This document shows positions 21,131 through 27,748 of a stretch of 64,000 nt of DNA, one piece after another (the stretch's first letter is position 1; each line of letters opens with the position of its first letter). A program made the translations under genes and the position numbers. Below the pieces are notes generated by a model. It worked only from the letters and a program-made list of their open reading frames with translations. It had not been told where the DNA came from and did no database searches. Source of the DNA: Alphaproteobacteria bacterium (GTDB taxonomy: Bacteria > Pseudomonadota > Alphaproteobacteria > GCA-2731375); NCBI GenBank assembly GCA_965232515.1, contig CBDDPY010000002.1:6208001-6272000 (forward strand). Direction: 5' to 3'.

Positions 21131-22212
21131 GCCATCTCGTCCTCGAATCCAGCCGGCGCCGGCATGTCTTTCGACGTGACCGCCAGAACCTTGAACAACG
21201 CGCCCATCTGCCCGGCACCGGTCAACCGCGCCGTCGCCGTCTCGATCGCGGCGGCCTGCGCCGGCGTCGCCTTGGCGCTCAACGTCGCGGCGCGCGCGGC
21301 GATGCCGAGGCGTTCCAGGAACCGGCCCTGCGGCACCGGCCCGTGGGCGGCGGCGCCCGCGCTGGTCGCCGCCTCGGCAAGCGCCTGAAAGTCGACATGG
21401 CTGGTGATGTCGGCCGTGCCGGGCGCCTGCAGCACCGGATGGCGGGCGTGTCCCTTCACGGCCTGCAAGGTATCGCCCGGCGCCGTGCGCACGTAGCCGT
21501 AGTCGACGACCAGCGCGAGGCCGCCGGCCGCGGCGATGCGCGCGGCGATCTCGGCCATAACGGACGCGCGGGCGGGCGAAGCCTCGACAATGCTGTCGGG
21601 GGGCGCCTGACGGACGGCGGGCGGCAGCGCGCTATCGGCGATGGGCTGTGGCGACAGCACGTAGGCGAGGCCGCTCGGGCCGACGTTGATGAGGCGTTCG
21701 TGCCACCGGTTCTTGTGCCGCTGAAACTGCCGTATCGGCAGGGCGTCGAAGAACTCGTTGGCGATCAGCAGCAACGGGGCGTCGGGCAGCTCGGCGATGT
21801 CGGCGTGCCAGGTGACGTCGACGCCGGCAAGCGTATCGCGCTGGCGTTCGCGAAGCGCCGGACTGACCTCGACCAGCCGAATATCGGCCGCGTCCAGGAA
21901 GCCCGGAACACCCCGGCAGGCCCGCACGGCGTCGGCCATGAGGGTGCCGCGGCCGGGGCCGAGCTCGACCAGCAGAAACGCCGACGGCCGACCGAGCTGC
22001 TGCCAGCCGTGCGCGCACCACAGACCGATCAGCTCGCCGAACATCTGGCTGATCTCGGGCGCGGTGACGAAATCGCCGTCTTGGCCGAAGGGATCGCGGT
22101 TGGCGTAATAGCCGAGGGTTGGATGGGTCAGCGCCTCGGCCATGAAGCGCGATACCGGCATCGGTCCGTCGACCGCGACCAGGCGACGAAGATGGTCGGC
22201 GAGCGCGCTCAT
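21127..22212 (-). CDS. SAM-dependent methyltransferase, MidA/NDUFAF7 family
   Basis: GDFVTAPEISQMFGE, ELGPGRG, NEFFDALP, DYG and DITSHVDF motifs. Confidence 0.92.
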   Translation of the reverse strand: MSALADHLRRLVAVDGPMPVSRFMAEALTHPTLGYYANRDPFGQDGDFVTAPEISQMFGELIGLWCAHGWQQLGRPSAFLLVELGPGRGTLMADAVRACRGVPGFLDAADIRLVEVSPALRERQRDTLAGVDVTWHADIAELPDAPLLLIANEFFDALPIRQFQRHKNRWHERLINVGPSGLAYVLSPQPIADSALPPAVRQAPPDSIVEASPARASVMAEIAARIAAAGGLALVVDYGYVRTAPGDTLQAVKGHARHPVLQAPGTADITSHVDFQALAEAATSAGAAAHGPVPQGRFLERLGIAARAATLSAKATPAQAAAIETATARLTGAGQMGALFKVLAVTSKDMPAPAGFEDEMA

Positions 22213-23030
22213 GAGGTTGTCGGCGGCGATGTCCGGGCGCGCCAGATCAAGTAGAGGCCCAGCATTAGCATGGGGATCGACAATAGCTGGCCCATGGTGC
22301 TGCCGCCGGCCAGCAGGCCGATATGCGCGTCGGGCTCGCGCAGGAGCTCGACGGTGCCGCGCGCCAGACCATAGCCGAGCAGAAAGACGCCGGTGGCAAA
22401 ACCCGGTCGTTCAAAGATCCGTCGCCGTTGCACCAGCCAGAACAGCAGCAGGAACAGCACAAGGCCTTCCAGCGCCGCCTCGTAGAGCTGGCTCGGGTGA
22501 CGCGGCAGGGGACCTCCGTTGGGAAACACCATGGCCCAGGGGACGTCTGTCGTCCGGCCGTAAAGCTCGCCATTGATGAAATTGGCGATGCGCCCGAAGA
22601 ACAGGCCGATCGGCGTCGCCGCGGCGATCATGTCGGCCAACGACAACAACGGAATCTTGCGCTGACGTGCGAACAGCAGGATGACAACGACAACGCCCAG
22701 CAAGCCGCCGTGAAACGCCATGCCGCCGCGCCAGATCGCGAACACCTCAAGGGGGTGCGCCAGATAGTAGGCCGGGTTGTAGAACAGCACCGAGCCGATC
22801 CGGCCGCCCAGGATGACGCCGATCGTCACCCAGAACAGCAGGTCGTCGACATCCTTGCGCTGCATCAGCGCGCCTGGCCGCCGATTGAGCCAGACCACGT
22901 AACGCCAGCCGCCGAACAGGCCGGCGATATAGGCGAGCGCGTACCAGCGGATCGCCACCGGGCCGATCTGCAGCAGCACGGGGTCGATGGCTGGATAAGG
23001 AAGAACGGGCAGGGTCGTCAGGCTGATCAT
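22209..23030 (-). CDS. lgt: Prolipoprotein diacylglyceryl transferase
   Basis: IRWYALAY, GGMAFHGG, GRIANFINGEL and HPSQLYE motifs; start moved to 23030. Confidence 0.96.
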   Translation of the reverse strand: MISLTTLPVLPYPAIDPVLLQIGPVAIRWYALAYIAGLFGGWRYVVWLNRRPGALMQRKDVDDLLFWVTIGVILGGRIGSVLFYNPAYYLAHPLEVFAIWRGGMAFHGGLLGVVVVILLFARQRKIPLLSLADMIAAATPIGLFFGRIANFINGELYGRTTDVPWAMVFPNGGPLPRHPSQLYEAALEGLVLFLLLFWLVQRRRIFERPGFATGVFLLGYGLARGTVELLREPDAHIGLLAGGSTMGQLLSIPMLMLGLYLIWRARTSPPTTS

Positions 23031-23160
23031 ACTCGACCGTCTCGGCGGATGCGCAGGATATAGCCGCCGTGCCGGCGGCTCGCAAGCAACGCAGATCGGC
23101 GGCCGCCATTGCCTGATGTCCGGCGGCGGGCCATATTGCCTGCGAAGGGAGTACAACGTG

Positions 23161-23475
23161 ATGGTTCCAAACCGCCGCCGCCTCGACGATATCGCCAAAA
23201 TCGCAACCAGCGCCGTCGGAATCCTGCAGGGCGCCGGTCGGGAGGCCGAGGGTCTGATGCGGATCCGCATGGAGCGGCTGCTCGACCGCATGGATCTGGT
23301 GACGCGCGACGAATTCGACGCGGTGAAAGCGATGGCGGTCGCCGCGCGGGAGGAGAATGCCGCCCTGAAGGAGCGGATCGCGGCGTTGGAAGCGGCCGCC
23401 AGGCCGGCGGCGCAACGCGCTGCCCGAGCCAAGTCGACGACCAAAGCGAAGCCGCGCGGCAAATCGACGAAATAG
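23161..23475 (+). CDS. ubiK: Accessory factor UbiK (BMFP) family protein
   Basis: LDDIAK...MDLVTRDEFDAVKAMA...AREEN coiled coil; divergent from lgt. Confidence 0.85.
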   Translation: MVPNRRRLDDIAKIATSAVGILQGAGREAEGLMRIRMERLLDRMDLVTRDEFDAVKAMAVAAREENAALKERIAALEAAARPAAQRAARAKSTTKAKPRGKSTK

Positions 23476-23478
23476 CCG

Positions 23479-24552
23479 TCAGCCGAAATGACCCATATAG
23501 GCCTTGCGCACCAGGTGGGGCAGCAGGAGACGGAGCGGCATGCGCAGCGCATGCGCCCGGACATAGAGCAGCCAGCGGGCGAGGCCGCTGAACCCGTCGT
23601 CGCAGGTCGGGTGATTCGGTCTGAGGCCGCGGTCGAAGAGAAAATCCATCAATGCCGATAGCGGCCGCGATGGCGCGCCGGCGCGCGATGCGTCGATGAC
23701 GTCGTCGGGGATCGGCGTGCCCAACACGTTGCGGGCATAGCGCAGCGCGTAGAAAAGCGGTCGGGACAGCTCGAGTTCGATCGCGCGGGGCACCAAACTG
23801 TCCCAGAACCGGACATCCGTTCCAAAATGAGAAAGCAAGGCGTCGAGGTCGCCGAGATCGCGCAGGCCCTTGTCGAACTCGCCCTCATGGAACAGATGGG
23901 TCGCCGCGTGAATGACCATGTCGGCCGGCGCCAGGGTGAACAGACCGTCGTGCGCTGGAATTGGCTGGGCGGCGGCCAACAGCTTTTGCGGGTCGGGATG
24001 GTAGGGTGCCGTCTCGGGCAATATCGTGTGGTGCACGTCCAGGTAGGTCTTGCGCTTGTAGTGCCGCAGCGGCGGCAGTTCGTGCATCCAGGTCCTGTAA
24101 TAGCGGCTGTCGTAGTCGCTGATCGGTCCGCTGGACCATCCCTTCAATGACAATTGACGTTCGACCGCGTCCAGTGATGTCTTGGGCACCAGGATGTCGA
24201 CGTCGAAGAAGATCCGACCGGCCGCCGGCGGCAATTGGGCCATGGTGTAGGCGGCGCCCTTCAACAGCACGATCGGCAGATCGAGGGGCGCGAGGGCGGC
24301 CTTGATCTGAGCCACTTCCCAGGCGACATCGATGGCCAGCCGGTCGGCGAACAGGCGGTTCGATTCGAGGTGGGCCAATGGCCGGTCCGGGACGCTGTCC
24401 AGCAGGTCCTGGTCCCGCAGGGCCAGGTAGAGCCGTGACAGCATGGCGGACTTGCGCGCCTGCCGGATCAGCCGATCCCACTCGCGACCGGTCAGATCGG
24501 CGGCGTCCAAGGGCTGGCGCAACGCGGCAGTCAGCGCGGGAACGGCGGTCAT
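23479..24552 (-). CDS. Uncharacterised nucleotidyltransferase (NTP_transf_5-like) of the HprK-related cassette
   Basis: LLKGAAY...GRIFFDVDILV (DxD), DVHH and LRDLGDL motifs; ATGA overlap with the kinase gene. Confidence 0.85.
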   Translation of the reverse strand: MTAVPALTAALRQPLDAADLTGREWDRLIRQARKSAMLSRLYLALRDQDLLDSVPDRPLAHLESNRLFADRLAIDVAWEVAQIKAALAPLDLPIVLLKGAAYTMAQLPPAAGRIFFDVDILVPKTSLDAVERQLSLKGWSSGPISDYDSRYYRTWMHELPPLRHYKRKTYLDVHHTILPETAPYHPDPQKLLAAAQPIPAHDGLFTLAPADMVIHAATHLFHEGEFDKGLRDLGDLDALLSHFGTDVRFWDSLVPRAIELELSRPLFYALRYARNVLGTPIPDDVIDASRAGAPSRPLSALMDFLFDRGLRPNHPTCDDGFSGLARWLLYVRAHALRMPLRLLLPHLVRKAYMGHFG

Positions 24553-25484
24553 GCCGACATTCGCGGCCTGGCCGCGGCGGGTGGTGTCAGAGCGTCAAAC
24601 ATGGCGATGGCGTCGTCCAGGTCGCCATAGCTGTATTCCATGCAGCTACAGCGGTCGACAAAGCCGGTCAGCGCGGCAAAGCCGGCCGCACCCAGCACAT
24701 TGGCGTTAAAGGCGCCGCCACTGAGGCGCAGCACCGATTGTCCTTTGCTGATGGGGGTCAACGCCGGCGACGCGCCGGCCGTGAATGTCGGGAAGATCAG
24801 CCAGGCCGGCGTCGCCGGTTCGGCCCAGCGCGCGACGCTATCGGTCGGCGGCTTCACATGCGCGACTGTGCCCTTGTTGGTATCGCGGGTCTCCGGGCCA
24901 ATGACAGCTTGCGGCGCGAACTGGCGCATCACGCCGATGGATTCGTTTTTCAGGCTGACCGGCCGCGGCATCGGCGACAGGCTGGCGCCGTCGTGCGCGA
25001 TCAGGCCCAGTTCGTCGGAGAACAGCCGCCAGCCACGGTTGATCAAGGCCGCGCAGAGCGTGCTCTTGCCCGAACCCGACGCGCCGGGCAGTACGGCGGC
25101 GAAGCCGTTGCGCTCGACCACGGCGGCATGCAAGACGAGGTGCTGATGCAGATGGGCGTGGGTCGCCCAGTTCAGTCCCCATTCCAGGACCGGGAACGCC
25201 TGGTTGCTGGACAATGGCGTGAACGGCACATGGCCGTCGAGATCGAAGATGACCAGCGGTCGTAGCCAGCGCCGCAGCAGCGACGGAGATCTGAGCCGGA
25301 CGTGAAAATCGACAAAGGCGTCGTCCGGTGCGATCGCATAGTCCCGGTAGAGCACGGCAATGCCGTCGACCAGTCCGTTCATTTGCGAGCGCACGCGGAC
25401 CGTGAGCGGCCCGATCCGCCAGGCCAGCCCGTCGCCGCGAAGGCGGCGGCGAATTTCGCTCTCGGTGAGGTCGGCGATCTTCAC
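24549..25484 (-). CDS. HprK-related kinase A
   Basis: LEWGLNW, LHAAVVE, Walker A GASGSGKST, WRLFSDE and PRPVSLKN motifs. Probable GTG start at 25484, just after the PqqD stop. Confidence 0.88.
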   Translation of the reverse strand: MKIADLTESEIRRRLRGDGLAWRIGPLTVRVRSQMNGLVDGIAVLYRDYAIAPDDAFVDFHVRLRSPSLLRRWLRPLVIFDLDGHVPFTPLSSNQAFPVLEWGLNWATHAHLHQHLVLHAAVVERNGFAAVLPGASGSGKSTLCAALINRGWRLFSDELGLIAHDGASLSPMPRPVSLKNESIGVMRQFAPQAVIGPETRDTNKGTVAHVKPPTDSVARWAEPATPAWLIFPTFTAGASPALTPISKGQSVLRLSGGAFNANVLGAAGFAALTGFVDRCSCMEYSYGDLDDAIAMFDALTPPAAARPRMSA

Positions 25485-25485
25485 G

Positions 25486-25782
25486 TCAGCTTCCGTCTGG
25501 CTCGACGAGGCCAAGCTTGTGAAACTCATCGATCAAGACCGCCAGATGGGCGGCCAAGTCAGGATCCGGCGGTAGGTTCAAGTCCGCGGCGACCTGTCGC
25601 GTCAGGCTGTCGACATCGGCGGGCGATTGCTGCAAGGCGCGGATCGCCGCCGCCTCGACGGGACCCAAGAGATGCGTATCGCCGGAGCCGTCGTGATAGG
25701 CGACGGACTCGTCACCCCAGCCACGCAGCTGGACGGAGAATTCGCGGGGCATGCGCCATCGAGAGTGCGACTGCGTGACCAT
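25486..25782 (-). CDS. Stand-alone PqqD/RRE-family protein (HPr-rel-A system type)
   Basis: About 98 aa; W.DE.V.Y...SGDTHLL beta strands followed by helices ending in F.KLGLVE. Directly upstream of the kinase. Confidence 0.82.
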   Translation of the reverse strand: MVTQSHSRWRMPREFSVQLRGWGDESVAYHDGSGDTHLLGPVEAAAIRALQQSPADVDSLTRQVAADLNLPPDPDLAAHLAVLIDEFHKLGLVEPDGS

Positions 25783-25911
25783 GGCCGGGAACGATCGGTT
25801 GTCGTTGGTCCCGCGCAAGCATCACGCAAGCCGGGATGATGGGTCAATCCCGGCCGTTTGTCGCAGGCAAAGGCGAAGAAATGGTAACGCGGCGGCCGGC
25901 CGCGGCATGTA

Positions 25912-26568
25912 TCAGCTGTAGTAGTTGCCGTGGCTGTCAAGCGGGCAATACTGGTTGTTGTAGTAGTCGAACTCGTTTTTGACTTCTTCCATGACGTCGG
26001 CAGTGTTGCTTTGGTAAGCCTGCACGAACTTGCTGATCACCGTCAGCACATCGAGATCGAATTTCACGTCGCAGGCCGCATTCTGCAACGCGGCGACCGC
26101 CTGCCTGCCGAGGTTGGGAAGCTGGCGGCTGCAGTTGCCATCGCAATTGGCCGGGATCACTGGATCGCAATCACCCCGGATCACCTCTTCCAGGGTCGCG
26201 CCAACCTGGCTGTTCTTGGCGTTGAAGGCCTGGATCAGGAAGATTTCCAAGAACTCCTTGTCGGGCCCGTATTGAGGGTGCCAGAGGTGCGTATGCTTCT
26301 TCCAGAAGCCCTTGCTGCAGCCCTCACCCTCACAATCGACGATTTCGGACATGTTCTCCGAGGCCATCGCCGACTCAGAACAACCGCCGGCCCAGGCCGG
26401 TCGGCCATACTGGGTCAAAATAACGGGGGCACCGATCAGGCCACCCTTGAGCAGCCGTCGCCGTGTGGCGCCGCCGGACTCGCTGGCCTGGGGGGTATCG
26501 GCGGCCTGGTCCGCGAGATTAGCGGAGTTATCGGCGCCGTTCTTGCCGTGCGATTTCATCTTGTCCAT
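25912..26568 (-). CDS. Hypothetical Cys-rich protein with twin-arginine/leader-like N-terminus
   Basis: RRRLLKGGLIGAPVILT...PAWA, then a Ser-rich CSESAMASENMS, GCSKGFWK and RQAVAALQNA; 8 Cys; ends in YYS. Confidence 0.8.
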   Translation of the reverse strand: MDKMKSHGKNGADNSANLADQAADTPQASESGGATRRRLLKGGLIGAPVILTQYGRPAWAGGCSESAMASENMSEIVDCEGEGCSKGFWKKHTHLWHPQYGPDKEFLEIFLIQAFNAKNSQVGATLEEVIRGDCDPVIPANCDGNCSRQLPNLGRQAVAALQNAACDVKFDLDVLTVISKFVQAYQSNTADVMEEVKNEFDYYNNQYCPLDSHGNYYS

Positions 26569-26782
26569 GACCCAGATACACCTGTCACTGTCCAGTCCGC
26601 CCTGCTCAACCGGCTGAACGCTAACAATGCGTCGCTTTACCGGCGAAACCTCTCCCTACGGACGGTCACCCGCTCGCTGGCGCCGAACATGACAACTGGA
26701 AGCAATCCCGTCGTATCCCCCGCGACGTGATTTCCCAGTTTGGCACGAACAACGGCCGCCCGAAGGCTCTCACCATCATACA

Positions 26783-26799
26783 AGCAAAATTCGGGCCAG
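26783..26799 (-). promoter_or_regulatory. Sigma54 (-24/-12) promoter driving the cassette
   Basis: Minus strand reads CTGGCCCGAATTTTGCT, i.e. TGGC-N7-TTGC with exact GG-N10-GC spacing. Confidence 0.8.
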
Positions 26800-26824
26800 G
26801 GGAGTCCAAACCAATAGGATGGGT

Positions 26825-26837
26825 TTTCAATGGTTTA
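26825..26837. promoter_or_regulatory. Putative IHF site
   Basis: TTTCAATGGTTTA has one mismatch to WATCAANNNNTTR and lies between the enhancer boxes and the sigma54 site. Confidence 0.5.
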
Positions 26838-26869
26838 ACGTCCCTTGCCCGGCCGGGGTTCTCCGATTC

Positions 26870-26906
26870 TGTAAAGAAACCCGACATAATGTAAGAAATC
26901 CCGACA
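26870..26906. promoter_or_regulatory. Tandem 17-bp TGT-N11-ACA enhancer boxes (bEBP binding sites)
   Basis: TGTAAAGAAACCCGACA (26870-26886) and TGTAAGAAATCCCGACA (26890-26906), 20 bp apart and about 70-110 bp upstream of the -24 element. Confidence 0.75.
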
Positions 26907-27244
26907 CTTAGCATCTGGCATTAACCATAAACGTGATTTCCGACGTACATGGCTGGCTCCGTTCGCGCTTCCTGTCGAGCACTGAACGTTACCTAACATA
27001 GAAACATGTCATAACGGTTTCTTTGTTCCCAGTGACTAGCATGAGAGCAGATGGTGTCCGGGGGTTGTGGGAGCGGCAAAACGCTTGCGCGCGGCTCGGG
27101 CTTCGTGGCACGTTAGCTTTTATGGTGTTCGAGATGGTGCTCAGCCACAAGATGTGGTCGATCAATCGGGTCCCTCGATTTTCCCCCATGGAATACCTGC
27201 GCCCAGACAACGCAATTCTGTTCCGCCGCTGAGGAGCGCTGGCA

Positions 27245-27748
27245 ATGCCGACGACCGAATTCGAAGAACCGACCGATATCGACAACCCGCTGGACGTCGT
27301 TGAGCAGATCGTGTCCGCGAACCAATGGCCGTTCGATCGCCAGGGCGAGGAAGAGCTTTCGGTCTCCATTGCCGGCAGCTGGTGCGACTACCATCTCGGC
27401 TTTTCGTTTCCGCAAGGGCAGGGCGCCATGCAGATCGCCTGTGCCTACGATCTGCGTGTGCCGCAACGGAAGCGCGAGGAGATCTACTCGTTGCTGGCCA
27501 TGGTGAACGAGCGCATGTGGCTCGGTCACTTCGACCTGTGGTCCGAGGAGGGCGTGCCGATGTTCCGGCACACCGTGCTGGTGCGCGGCGGGCCGGCGCT
27601 GACGCCGACGCAGCTCGAGGAAATGATCGAGGTGTCGATCGGCGAATGCGAGCGGTTCTATCCGGCCTTCCAGTTCGTGCTTTGGGGCGGCAAGGCGCCG
27701 GACGAAGCGATCGAGGCGTCGATGCTGGAAACCGTCGGCGAGGCCTGA
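27245..27748 (+). CDS. YbjN domain protein
   Basis: NPLDVVE...WPF...GSWCDY...NE.MWLGHFDLW...CERFYPAFQ...ETVGEA; upstream of proC. Confidence 0.85.
   Translation: MPTTEFEEPTDIDNPLDVVEQIVSANQWPFDRQGEEELSVSIAGSWCDYHLGFSFPQGQGAMQIACAYDLRVPQRKREEIYSLLAMVNERMWLGHFDLWSEEGVPMFRHTVLVRGGPALTPTQLEEMIEVSIGECERFYPAFQFVLWGGKAPDEAIEASMLETVGEA

Follow-up and report, generated by a model that had tools for sequence, protein, structure and literature searches.

The operon and its leading gene

We analysed a stretch of 64,000 nucleotides from an Alphaproteobacteria bacterium (contig CBDDPY010000002.1, positions 6,208,001 to 6,272,000 of the forward strand; hereafter the window), and the subject of the analysis was a gene for a 218-residue protein with an N-terminus of the twin-arginine translocation (Tat) type. 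The open reading frame (ORF) list and the neighbour scan showed that this gene leads a four-gene operon. The original prediction, made from the DNA letters, had named the protein as a candidate substrate beside a modifying cassette, and the gene was indeed the conserved first gene of a PqqD/HprK-like kinase/nucleotidyltransferase operon. The four genes are the following:

25912..26568, minus strand: Tat-leader protein (candidate substrate or precursor), 218 aa, ATG start, stop codon included
25486..25818, minus strand: PqqD-family peptide chaperone, that is, a recognition element (RRE) for peptides that are made on ribosomes and modified after translation (RiPPs); TIGR04353, 55.6 bits against a cut-off of 35
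24549..25529, minus strand: HprK-related kinase A; TIGR04352, 365.2 bits (cut-off 200) over model positions 1-280 of 280
23479..24552, minus strand: NTP_transf_5 nucleotidyltransferase; PF14907, 183.4 bits

The PqqD and kinase genes overlapped by 44 nt, and the kinase stop overlapped the nucleotidyltransferase start by 4 nt. The kinase match to TIGR04352 was also recovered in a genome-wide search. As TIGR04352 and TIGR04353 both scored above their cut-offs and the TIGR04353 gene lies next to the kinase gene, the operon belongs, by these family assignments, to the HPr-rel-A system catalogued in NCBIfam. That entry names two enzymes only, whereas the first-gene protein was matched by no NCBIfam or Pfam model.

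Direct reading of the 218-residue protein recovered every string that had been quoted for it, namely RRRLLKGG (residues 36-43), APVILTQYGRP (47-57), AWA (58-60), GCSKGFWK (83-90), RQAVAALQNA (155-164) and the C-terminal HGNYYS. Residues 61-74 read GGCSESAMASENMS, with serines at 64, 66, 70 and 74 (four in 11 residues). Eight cysteines were present (63, 79, 84, 134, 142, 146, 166 and 208), and no PEP-CTERM or LPxTG sorting tail was seen on reading. The first homology search returned 35 homologues of similar length, and a wider search returned 578 representative clusters at E ≤ 1e-3, 69 of them at ≤ 1e-10. Because of these homologues and clusters, the ORF is by sequence comparison a real gene with features beyond chance.

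Conservation was read from an unselected alignment of 35 sequences (A1), from an alignment of 108 leader-bearing sequences (A3), and from an ungapped set of 102 aligned on the serine motif, in which S66, S70, N72 and S74 are part of the selection pattern and are therefore 100% conserved by construction. A motif survey of the 177 retained homologues found S-x3-S-x-N-x-[ST] within the first 130 residues in 105. Another 26 had the RR pair and no strict serine pattern; 23 of these were shorter than 320 aa, and about half of the 23 showed, by reading, the shorter variant C-[ST]-x-S-[GA]-x-x-S. The remaining 46 had neither. Within the 218-residue protein we distinguished these regions:

26389..26568, minus strand: leader, residues 1-60, with an acidic variable n-region, T35-RRRLLK41, an h-region with A47-PVILT52, and the c-region R56-PAWA60
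26446..26466, minus strand: twin-arginine consensus T-R-R-R-L-L-K, residues 35-41; R36 and R37 at least 90% conserved in A1
26413..26430, minus strand: A47-PVILT52, the proposed RRE docking strand; Pro in 52/102, followed by three positions with V/I/L, T in 52/102
26332..26382, minus strand: serine loop C63-S-E-S66-A-M-A-S70-E-N72-M-S74-E-I-V-D-C79, the proposed modification site; pLDDT below 50
25927..26331, minus strand: core domain, mainly helical, residues 80-214, with GEGCSKGFWK, QAVAALQNA and NNQYCPL motifs; no Pfam family
25915..25938, minus strand: C-terminal tail D211-SHGNYYS218, a non-conserved extension with a terminal Ser

Leader, serine loop and their linkage to the cassette

Tat signals follow the consensus [ST]-R-R-x-[FL]-L-K, with a moderately hydrophobic h-region and a c-region that carries AxA. 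The N-terminus fitted this pattern, as had been claimed for it: T35-RRRLLK41 was followed by a G/A/P-rich h-region (G42-T52), and a basic residue of the c-region preceded AWA (R56-PAWA60). Signal peptidase I is predicted, by the AxA rule, to cut after A60. The genome has tatC (218.8 bits against a cut-off of 132.7). In A1, residues R36, R37, P57, A60, C63, S66, S70, N72 and S74 were each conserved in at least 90% of the sequences. The RR pair lay exactly 30 and 29 residues upstream of S66 in 82-83 of the 102 ungapped sequences, and RPxWA was better conserved than APV in the leader-bearing homologues. An AlphaFold2 (AF2) model on A1 gave pLDDT below 50 for residues 1-78, i.e. the leader and most of the serine loop, and above 90 for the mainly helical residues 79-214. 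The model thus predicts a disordered N-terminus ahead of a folded core.

The family motif of the loop is C-[ST]-x-S-[GA]-x-x-S-[GA]-N-x-S ... C. Counted from S66 in the 102 set, the unselected positions showed Cys at −3 in 101/102, S/T at −2 in 97/102, G/A at +1 in 98/102 and G/A at +5 in 94/102. In A3, position 79, which lies outside the selection, was Cys in 108/108, and S74 was present in 102/108. The other two cysteines read from A3 were less constant (C84 in 87/108 and C208 in 80/108). Among 59 proteins without the strict loop pattern, only 28 had a Cys in the 8 residues that precede the G(E)GC motif. From these columns C84 and C208 look like a pair of the core domain, and C63 and C79, which bracket the serines, appear to belong to the leader-bearing form. 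The check on the periodic serines came out in favour of the earlier suggestion. Because S66, S70 and S74 were invariant or nearly so, one of them is favoured as the acceptor; the assignment is uncertain because the position 15 residues after the leader proline (Pro+15) holds Cys63 rather than a serine.

The C-terminal serine, offered earlier as another modification site, did not hold up. The last residue was Ser in 11 and Leu in 25 of the 108 sequences of A3, and the S218 column was a gap in 86/108. Most leader-bearing homologues end at ...CPL, and the DSHGNYYS tail is limited to close relatives. With a terminal Ser in only 11/108, this acceptor was rejected.

A lipobox has the pattern [LVI]-[ASTVI]-[GAS]-C, in which the Cys directly follows a small residue. 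A lipoprotein reading of Cys63 was rejected, as the residue before it was N in 38, Q in 11, G in 9 and S in 7 of the 102 sequences, and the one before that was R in 27, N in 22 and G in 17.

Linkage was examined with the best 80 of 155 confirmed stretches encoding relatives, which gave 77 distinct loci and were searched with the four proteins of the window. They divided as follows:

47 loci: strict RR...C[STN]xS[GASV]xxS module, with the kinase (and PqqD and nucleotidyltransferase where detectable) directly downstream in the same order
3 loci: cassette with a variant module (L007, L061 and L066)
2 loci: module present, only 183 and 441 nt of contig left
25 loci: core domain only, no cassette

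All 50 cassette loci encoded the leader and serine-loop form. None of the 25 core-only loci had a cassette, and the serine loop was absent from these homologous loci. Among the 47 strict loci, first-gene stop and kinase were about 274 nt apart in the median, which leaves room for the PqqD gene. The association of leader plus loop with the cassette was without exception among the 77 loci.

Starting from the kinase, we sampled 401 genomes of the phylum, among them the genome of the window and one unpublished genome with a weak match only; TIGR04352 exceeded its cut-off in 62. Among the 29 best TIGR04352 loci outside the genome of the window, reading showed a Tat-leader ORF in 25, its end about 300 nt upstream of the kinase, with a leader of the form RRRxL(L/I)KGL...P(V/A)(I/V)(L/I)TL...ALA. 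A crude pattern flagged 28 of the 29, with L101, L102, L104 and L105 unconvincing. The strict loop pattern was found only in L103 and L107, and variant serine loops were read in L083, L084 and L087. The other leader ORFs had an unrelated mature part ending in ...SCWxSF and often stood behind a glycosyltransferase gene. Since most of these ORFs have a different mature domain, the leader rather than the mature domain appears to be the common feature of the cassette neighbours.

These loci (L081-L109) yielded a second, larger class of cassette-linked Tat-leader proteins, with about 130-150 aa after the RR pair, a leader of the type RRRRLLKGL..VPVILTL..GAALA, and a Cys a few residues after the Pro+15 serine. 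PxhhT was present in 19 of 22 other-class leaders, and Pro+15 was Ser, the third residue after ALA, in 16 of these 19. A quick maximum-likelihood tree, built from 78 kinases, grouped the 23 other-class kinases as one clade (SH-aLRT 100) and paired the kinase of the window with that of an alphaproteobacterial metagenome-assembled genome (MAG) at 87% identity. The substrate label needed 3 changes on this tree against 21.3 for shuffled labels, the relatives not being independent and the labels, taken from a loose pattern, being imprecise for L066, L082, L084 and L087.

A hidden Markov model (HMM) of 22 leaders of the other substrate class, 35 residues each and all from other genomes, was then compared with the ORFs of 60 aa or more, stop to stop, in the six frames of the 7.39-Mb genome of the window (63,512 in all). 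The 218-residue ORF was the sole significant match (E 2.5e-8, 34.9 bits). The runner-up reached only E 0.22, so the ordinary Tat substrates of this genome are unlike this leader. The leader is far more specific than a generic Tat signal, as would be expected if it were also a recognition leader. This cross-class result is the strongest support for a dual Tat signal and recognition leader, as the original prediction had it.

Enzymes, core domain and surroundings

The AF2 model of the PqqD protein showed three strands and three helices with pLDDT 90.7. Its best match in the PDB was the leader-bound lasso RRE TbiB1 (5v1v_A; TM 0.71/0.78, rmsd 2.8, 91 columns, E 1.8e-3), and further matches were PqqD, a lasso B1 protein with bound leader, and RRE domains of other RiPP enzymes. 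A sequence search of solved structures with the PqqD profile returned designed helical repeats only and no solved RRE. As modelled, the PqqD-family protein of the operon has an RRE fold. A complex prediction of PqqD (alignment A2) with residues 28-82 (A3) gave a score of 0.02 and a mark of 0.32, which says nothing either way about binding.

The kinase showed a Walker A motif (GASGSGKST) on reading and matched the P-loop region of HPr kinase weakly in the Pfam scan and the sequence search of solved structures. The nucleotidyltransferase showed an FFDVDILV motif, and the same structure search found no solved relative for it. No lyase or cyclase family was detected in the operon by the Pfam and NCBIfam scans. 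The ORF list and library scans showed no protease or exporter gene in the operon, and the ORF list and related loci gave no second conserved small ORF.

A second HprK-like gene lies outside the window in the same genome (L079:1495-2712, minus strand, equal to about 4151180-4152397 of contig C2; 405 aa). Because its N-terminus matched PqqD models (NF033530, E 1.1e-5; TIGR04353, E 1.2e-3) and its C-terminal part matched TIGR04352 (104 bits, below the cut-off of 200), it reads as a fused RRE-kinase. By reading it adjoins a large FAD/GMC-oxidoreductase-like ORF. A weak leader-HMM match (E 0.76) lies just downstream of it (C2:4149227-4149631).

The core domain gave no Foldseek match in the PDB at E ≤ 1e-3. 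The wide VIA-align search reached a best Z of 5.4, with generic or designed helical bundles only, and the ESM Atlas returned unnamed clusters only (scores 0.83-0.89). The domain was found again, without a leader, as the C-terminal part of large secreted proteins with SdrD_B, DUF7507, He_PIG, PKD or Big_1 domains. On account of this recurrence it is read as an unannotated extracellular domain, a candidate new family. Its consensus is GEGC[ST]PG[FY]WK ... AVAALLNA ... NxQGCPL (examples P0048, P0064, P0079 and P0098). Besides single copies there are tandem ones (6 stretches in the 808-aa P0048), and surface proteins of 900-1900 aa in Planctomycetota, Gemmatimonadota, Chloroflexota and candidate phyla carry it at their end.

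Upstream the operon is bounded by a 670-nt spacer and a divergent YbjN-family gene, and downstream by a convergent UbiK/BMFP-family gene. With these boundaries the four-gene operon is set among housekeeping genes and not in a polysaccharide locus. The spacer (26570-27245) had a GC content of 0.52-0.54, against about 0.65 around it, and could represent a regulatory region or a long 5' untranslated one. Contigs from RNA libraries of a close relative extend over 26455-27053. One promoter-like element was seen in the spacer:

26784..26798, minus strand: sigma-54-like −24/−12 element TGGCCCGAATTTTGC, one mismatch to TGGCAC-N5-TTGC, some 216 nt upstream of the ATG; no more than a lead

The sigma-54 pattern occurred in the window at chance level (72 matches against 69.7 expected), so TGGCCCGAATTTTGC is no evidence by itself. 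No sigma-70-like site was found in 23000-27400. An lgt-like ORF (22209-23564, minus strand; prolipoprotein diacylglyceryl transferase by sequence reading) has a far-upstream start with an Arg/Cys-rich, non-protein-like N-terminus. In this extended form it runs antisense over the UbiK-like gene, and its true start is probably the internal MISLTTLP....

Known systems, alternatives and the proposed pathway

The closest known systems are the LPP clusters of Bacillota and the phospho-lasso peptides. In the LPP article (Popov et al., Nat Commun 2026, PMC13381572), the precursor has 35-200 aa and the leader motif YxxPxVLxHQxIxFETxxS, and the clusters encode an RRE (LppB), an HprK-like kinase (LppK), an NTP-transferase (LppN), a SipW-like peptidase (LppS) and a pump (LppD). 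LppK polyphosphorylates core Ser3, just behind the signal-peptidase-type cleavage site, and cleavage is poor without phosphorylation. The RRE-binding motif of lasso and LPP leaders is given there as [Y/W]xxPx[L/V/I], and in the LPP consensus the acceptor Ser stands 15 residues after the proline of YxxP. The article states LPP to be restricted to Bacillota and has no mention of Tat or Proteobacteria. Our literature search found no publication on the proteobacterial HPr-rel-A system or its substrate; the supplements of PMC13381572, which might list proteobacterial relatives, lay outside this search.

[quoted passage not shown] LPP precursors also reach 200 aa, and their acceptor Ser is placed just behind a signal-peptidase-type site. 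The leader shares a Px(V/I)L element, the Pro-to-Ser spacing of 15 is common to LPP and 16/19 of the sister-class leaders, and a polysaccharide-locus context is frequent for the wider cassette family. In contrast to LPP, the four-gene operon has no SipW-like archaeal-type signal peptidase I and no MsbA-like pump. Its leader is of the twin-arginine type, and only Px(V/I)L and the spacing resemble YxxPxVLxHQxIxFETxxS. The 'core' is a serine loop plus a folded domain of 135 residues with Cys63 at Pro+15, and the host belongs to Pseudomonadota rather than Bacillota.

According to a review (PMC8498205), lasso kinases work before maturation, phosphorylating the still linear precursor at its C-terminal Ser, and the nucleotidyltransferase of pseudomycoidin adds one or two hexoses to the Ser phosphate. 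As in the paeninodin (kinase) and pseudomycoidin (kinase and nucleotidyltransferase) systems, an HPr-kinase homologue and a nucleotidyltransferase would act on an RRE-recruited ribosomal product. Unlike these systems, the operon has no lasso cyclase or B2 protease, the C-terminal Ser is unconserved (11/108), and the product is a protein and not a peptide of about 20 residues. A lasso precursor reading was rejected on the unconserved C-terminal Ser and the missing cyclase and B2 protease. By analogy, the operon would work most like the LPP and phospho-lasso tailoring pathways, although three LPP features (peptidase, pump and leader motif) are lacking. A Tat signal with an AxA site would supply the peptidase and pump functions through the general machinery.

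Taken with the linkage and the leader specificity, this comparison makes the 218-residue protein probably the dedicated substrate of the HPr-rel-A cassette, and the operon a proteobacterial equivalent, with a Tat leader, of LPP tailoring in Bacillota and of phospho-lasso tailoring. In the pathway that we propose, the cytoplasmic PqqD-type RRE would bind the leader (RR...PVILT...RPAWA), which would at the same time be the Tat signal peptide. The RRE would then offer HprK-related kinase A the flexible Cys63-Cys79 serine loop, which closely follows the signal-peptidase site; at least one of S66, S70 and S74 would be phosphorylated by the kinase, perhaps repeatedly. NTP_transf_5 would attach another group, perhaps a sugar or nucleotide on the phosphate as in pseudomycoidin, perhaps in some other way. 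The folded, modified protein would leave by Tat, and ordinary signal peptidase I would remove the leader after AWA. The product would be a helical surface or periplasmic domain with a decorated N-terminal loop. This detailed scheme, in which the Tat signal doubles as a RiPP-type leader, the RRE recruits both enzymes, the loop receives phospho-, polyphospho- or phospho-glycosyl/nucleotidyl-Ser, and general Tat export and signal peptidase I replace the LPP peptidase and pump, is put forward tentatively, at close to even chances.

Several points weigh against this pathway. The Pfam model TAT_signal (PF10518) missed the 218-residue protein at E ≤ 1 and matched 11/108 members (best E 8.9e-4), the model being short and insensitive. 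The suggestion of APVIL as the RRE docking strand survived in part: V/I/L was kept at the next three positions, but the proline occupied the ungapped position in only 52 of 102 sequences, and a large Thiobacillus group has AAVFTL instead. The leader reads ...LIGAPVILTQYGRPAWAGGCSES, with no Y or W three residues before Pro, and this column was A, S, V or I in the 102 homologues. Pro+15, which is the acceptor spacing in LPP and is Ser in 16/19 other-class leaders, is the invariant Cys63 in the class of the 218-residue protein, followed by S/T64 and S66. The serine loop could have a structural role, closed by a disulfide between C63 and C79, or could serve as an N-x-S sequon. Closely related Thiobacillus MAGs account for many of the 50 linked loci, and the counts overstate independent events. 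RNA-seq contigs (four libraries of one study on a relative 95-99% identical) cover parts of all four operon genes, and one 676-nt contig spans 25344-26019, i.e. the kinase start, PqqD and the first-gene end; the depth over the operon was low and similar on the flanks, DNA carry-over is possible, and these contigs are no proof of transcription. Even in LPP, deletion of the NTP-transferase gene lppN had no visible effect in the heterologous host (PMC13381572). The modification itself is proposed from sequence and precedent, here as for every proteobacterial member.

A different target for the cassette was also considered. The 218-residue protein would then be an ordinary Tat-exported surface or periplasmic protein, the cassette would act on another peptide or on a polysaccharide or lipid intermediate, and the genes would share one envelope process. 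This is consistent with the many TIGR04352 cassettes that, by reading of the upstream ORFs, adjoin glycosyltransferase genes of polysaccharide loci, and with the core domain existing without the cassette (25 loci, and multidomain surface proteins). However, the cassette contains an RRE, which is a peptide-binding adaptor, leader and serine loop were found only with the cassette, the leader is common to unrelated mature domains, and no other small ORF is conserved in the operon. We regard a different target as unlikely.

The invariant cysteines around the serines suggest another chemistry, in which phosphorylation is an activation step: phospho-Ser would be turned into dehydroalanine and captured by Cys63 or Cys79 into a lanthionine-like thioether ring, with the nucleotidyltransferase-fold protein taking part in elimination or cyclisation. 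Class III/IV lanthipeptide synthetases use kinase activation, C79 was found in 108/108 against 28/59 for a Cys in the proteins without the strict loop, and Cys63 stands at the LPP acceptor spacing. However, no lyase or cyclase family was detected in the operon, and the HprK-type systems that were studied by experiment keep the phosphate on their product, as described in PMC13381572 and PMC8498205. A post-export C63-C79 disulfide explains the Cys pair more simply, and a thioether ring is quite improbable.

The PqqD protein might instead serve mainly as a proofreading chaperone of the Tat signal, like TorD, DmsD or NapD, holding the precursor until its folding or its disulfide or cofactor status is right, with the kinase and transferase as regulators. 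Such chaperones are cytoplasmic partners that bind a Tat signal and coordinate the maturation that precedes export. In keeping with this role, what the substrate classes have in common is the Tat-like leader itself. The role leaves unexplained, however, the invariant serine loop behind the cleavage site and the strict presence of two enzymes with peptide-modifying relatives. The fold also differs (RRE/winged helix in the PqqD protein), as does the coupling to covalent-modification enzymes and not to cofactor insertion. We give a mainly proofreading role very little credence. That the N-terminus is a RiPP-type leader merely resembling a Tat signal, with another protease and export route or intracellular action, would agree with the PF10518 miss and with the short h-region interrupted by G, P, Q and Y, but is very unlikely in view of the exact [ST]-RR-x-[FL]-L-K fit, the basic c-region residue and AxA site, the core-domain relatives in secreted surface proteins, and the lack of a protease or exporter gene in the operon.

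The preferred explanation remains the dedicated substrate that is modified on its serine loop before Tat export. The four-gene unit is directly testable, with S66, S70, S74, C63 and C79 as candidate acceptors and the leader peptide for binding. If the explanation is correct, it would assign a substrate to a catalogued and so far unexplained enzyme cassette, and it would give a Tat signal a further role as an enzyme-recruiting leader. RRE-guided, RiPP-like chemistry would extend from short peptides to folded, Tat-exported proteins, and several substrate families of Pseudomonadota would share a new class of protein modification that takes place before export.

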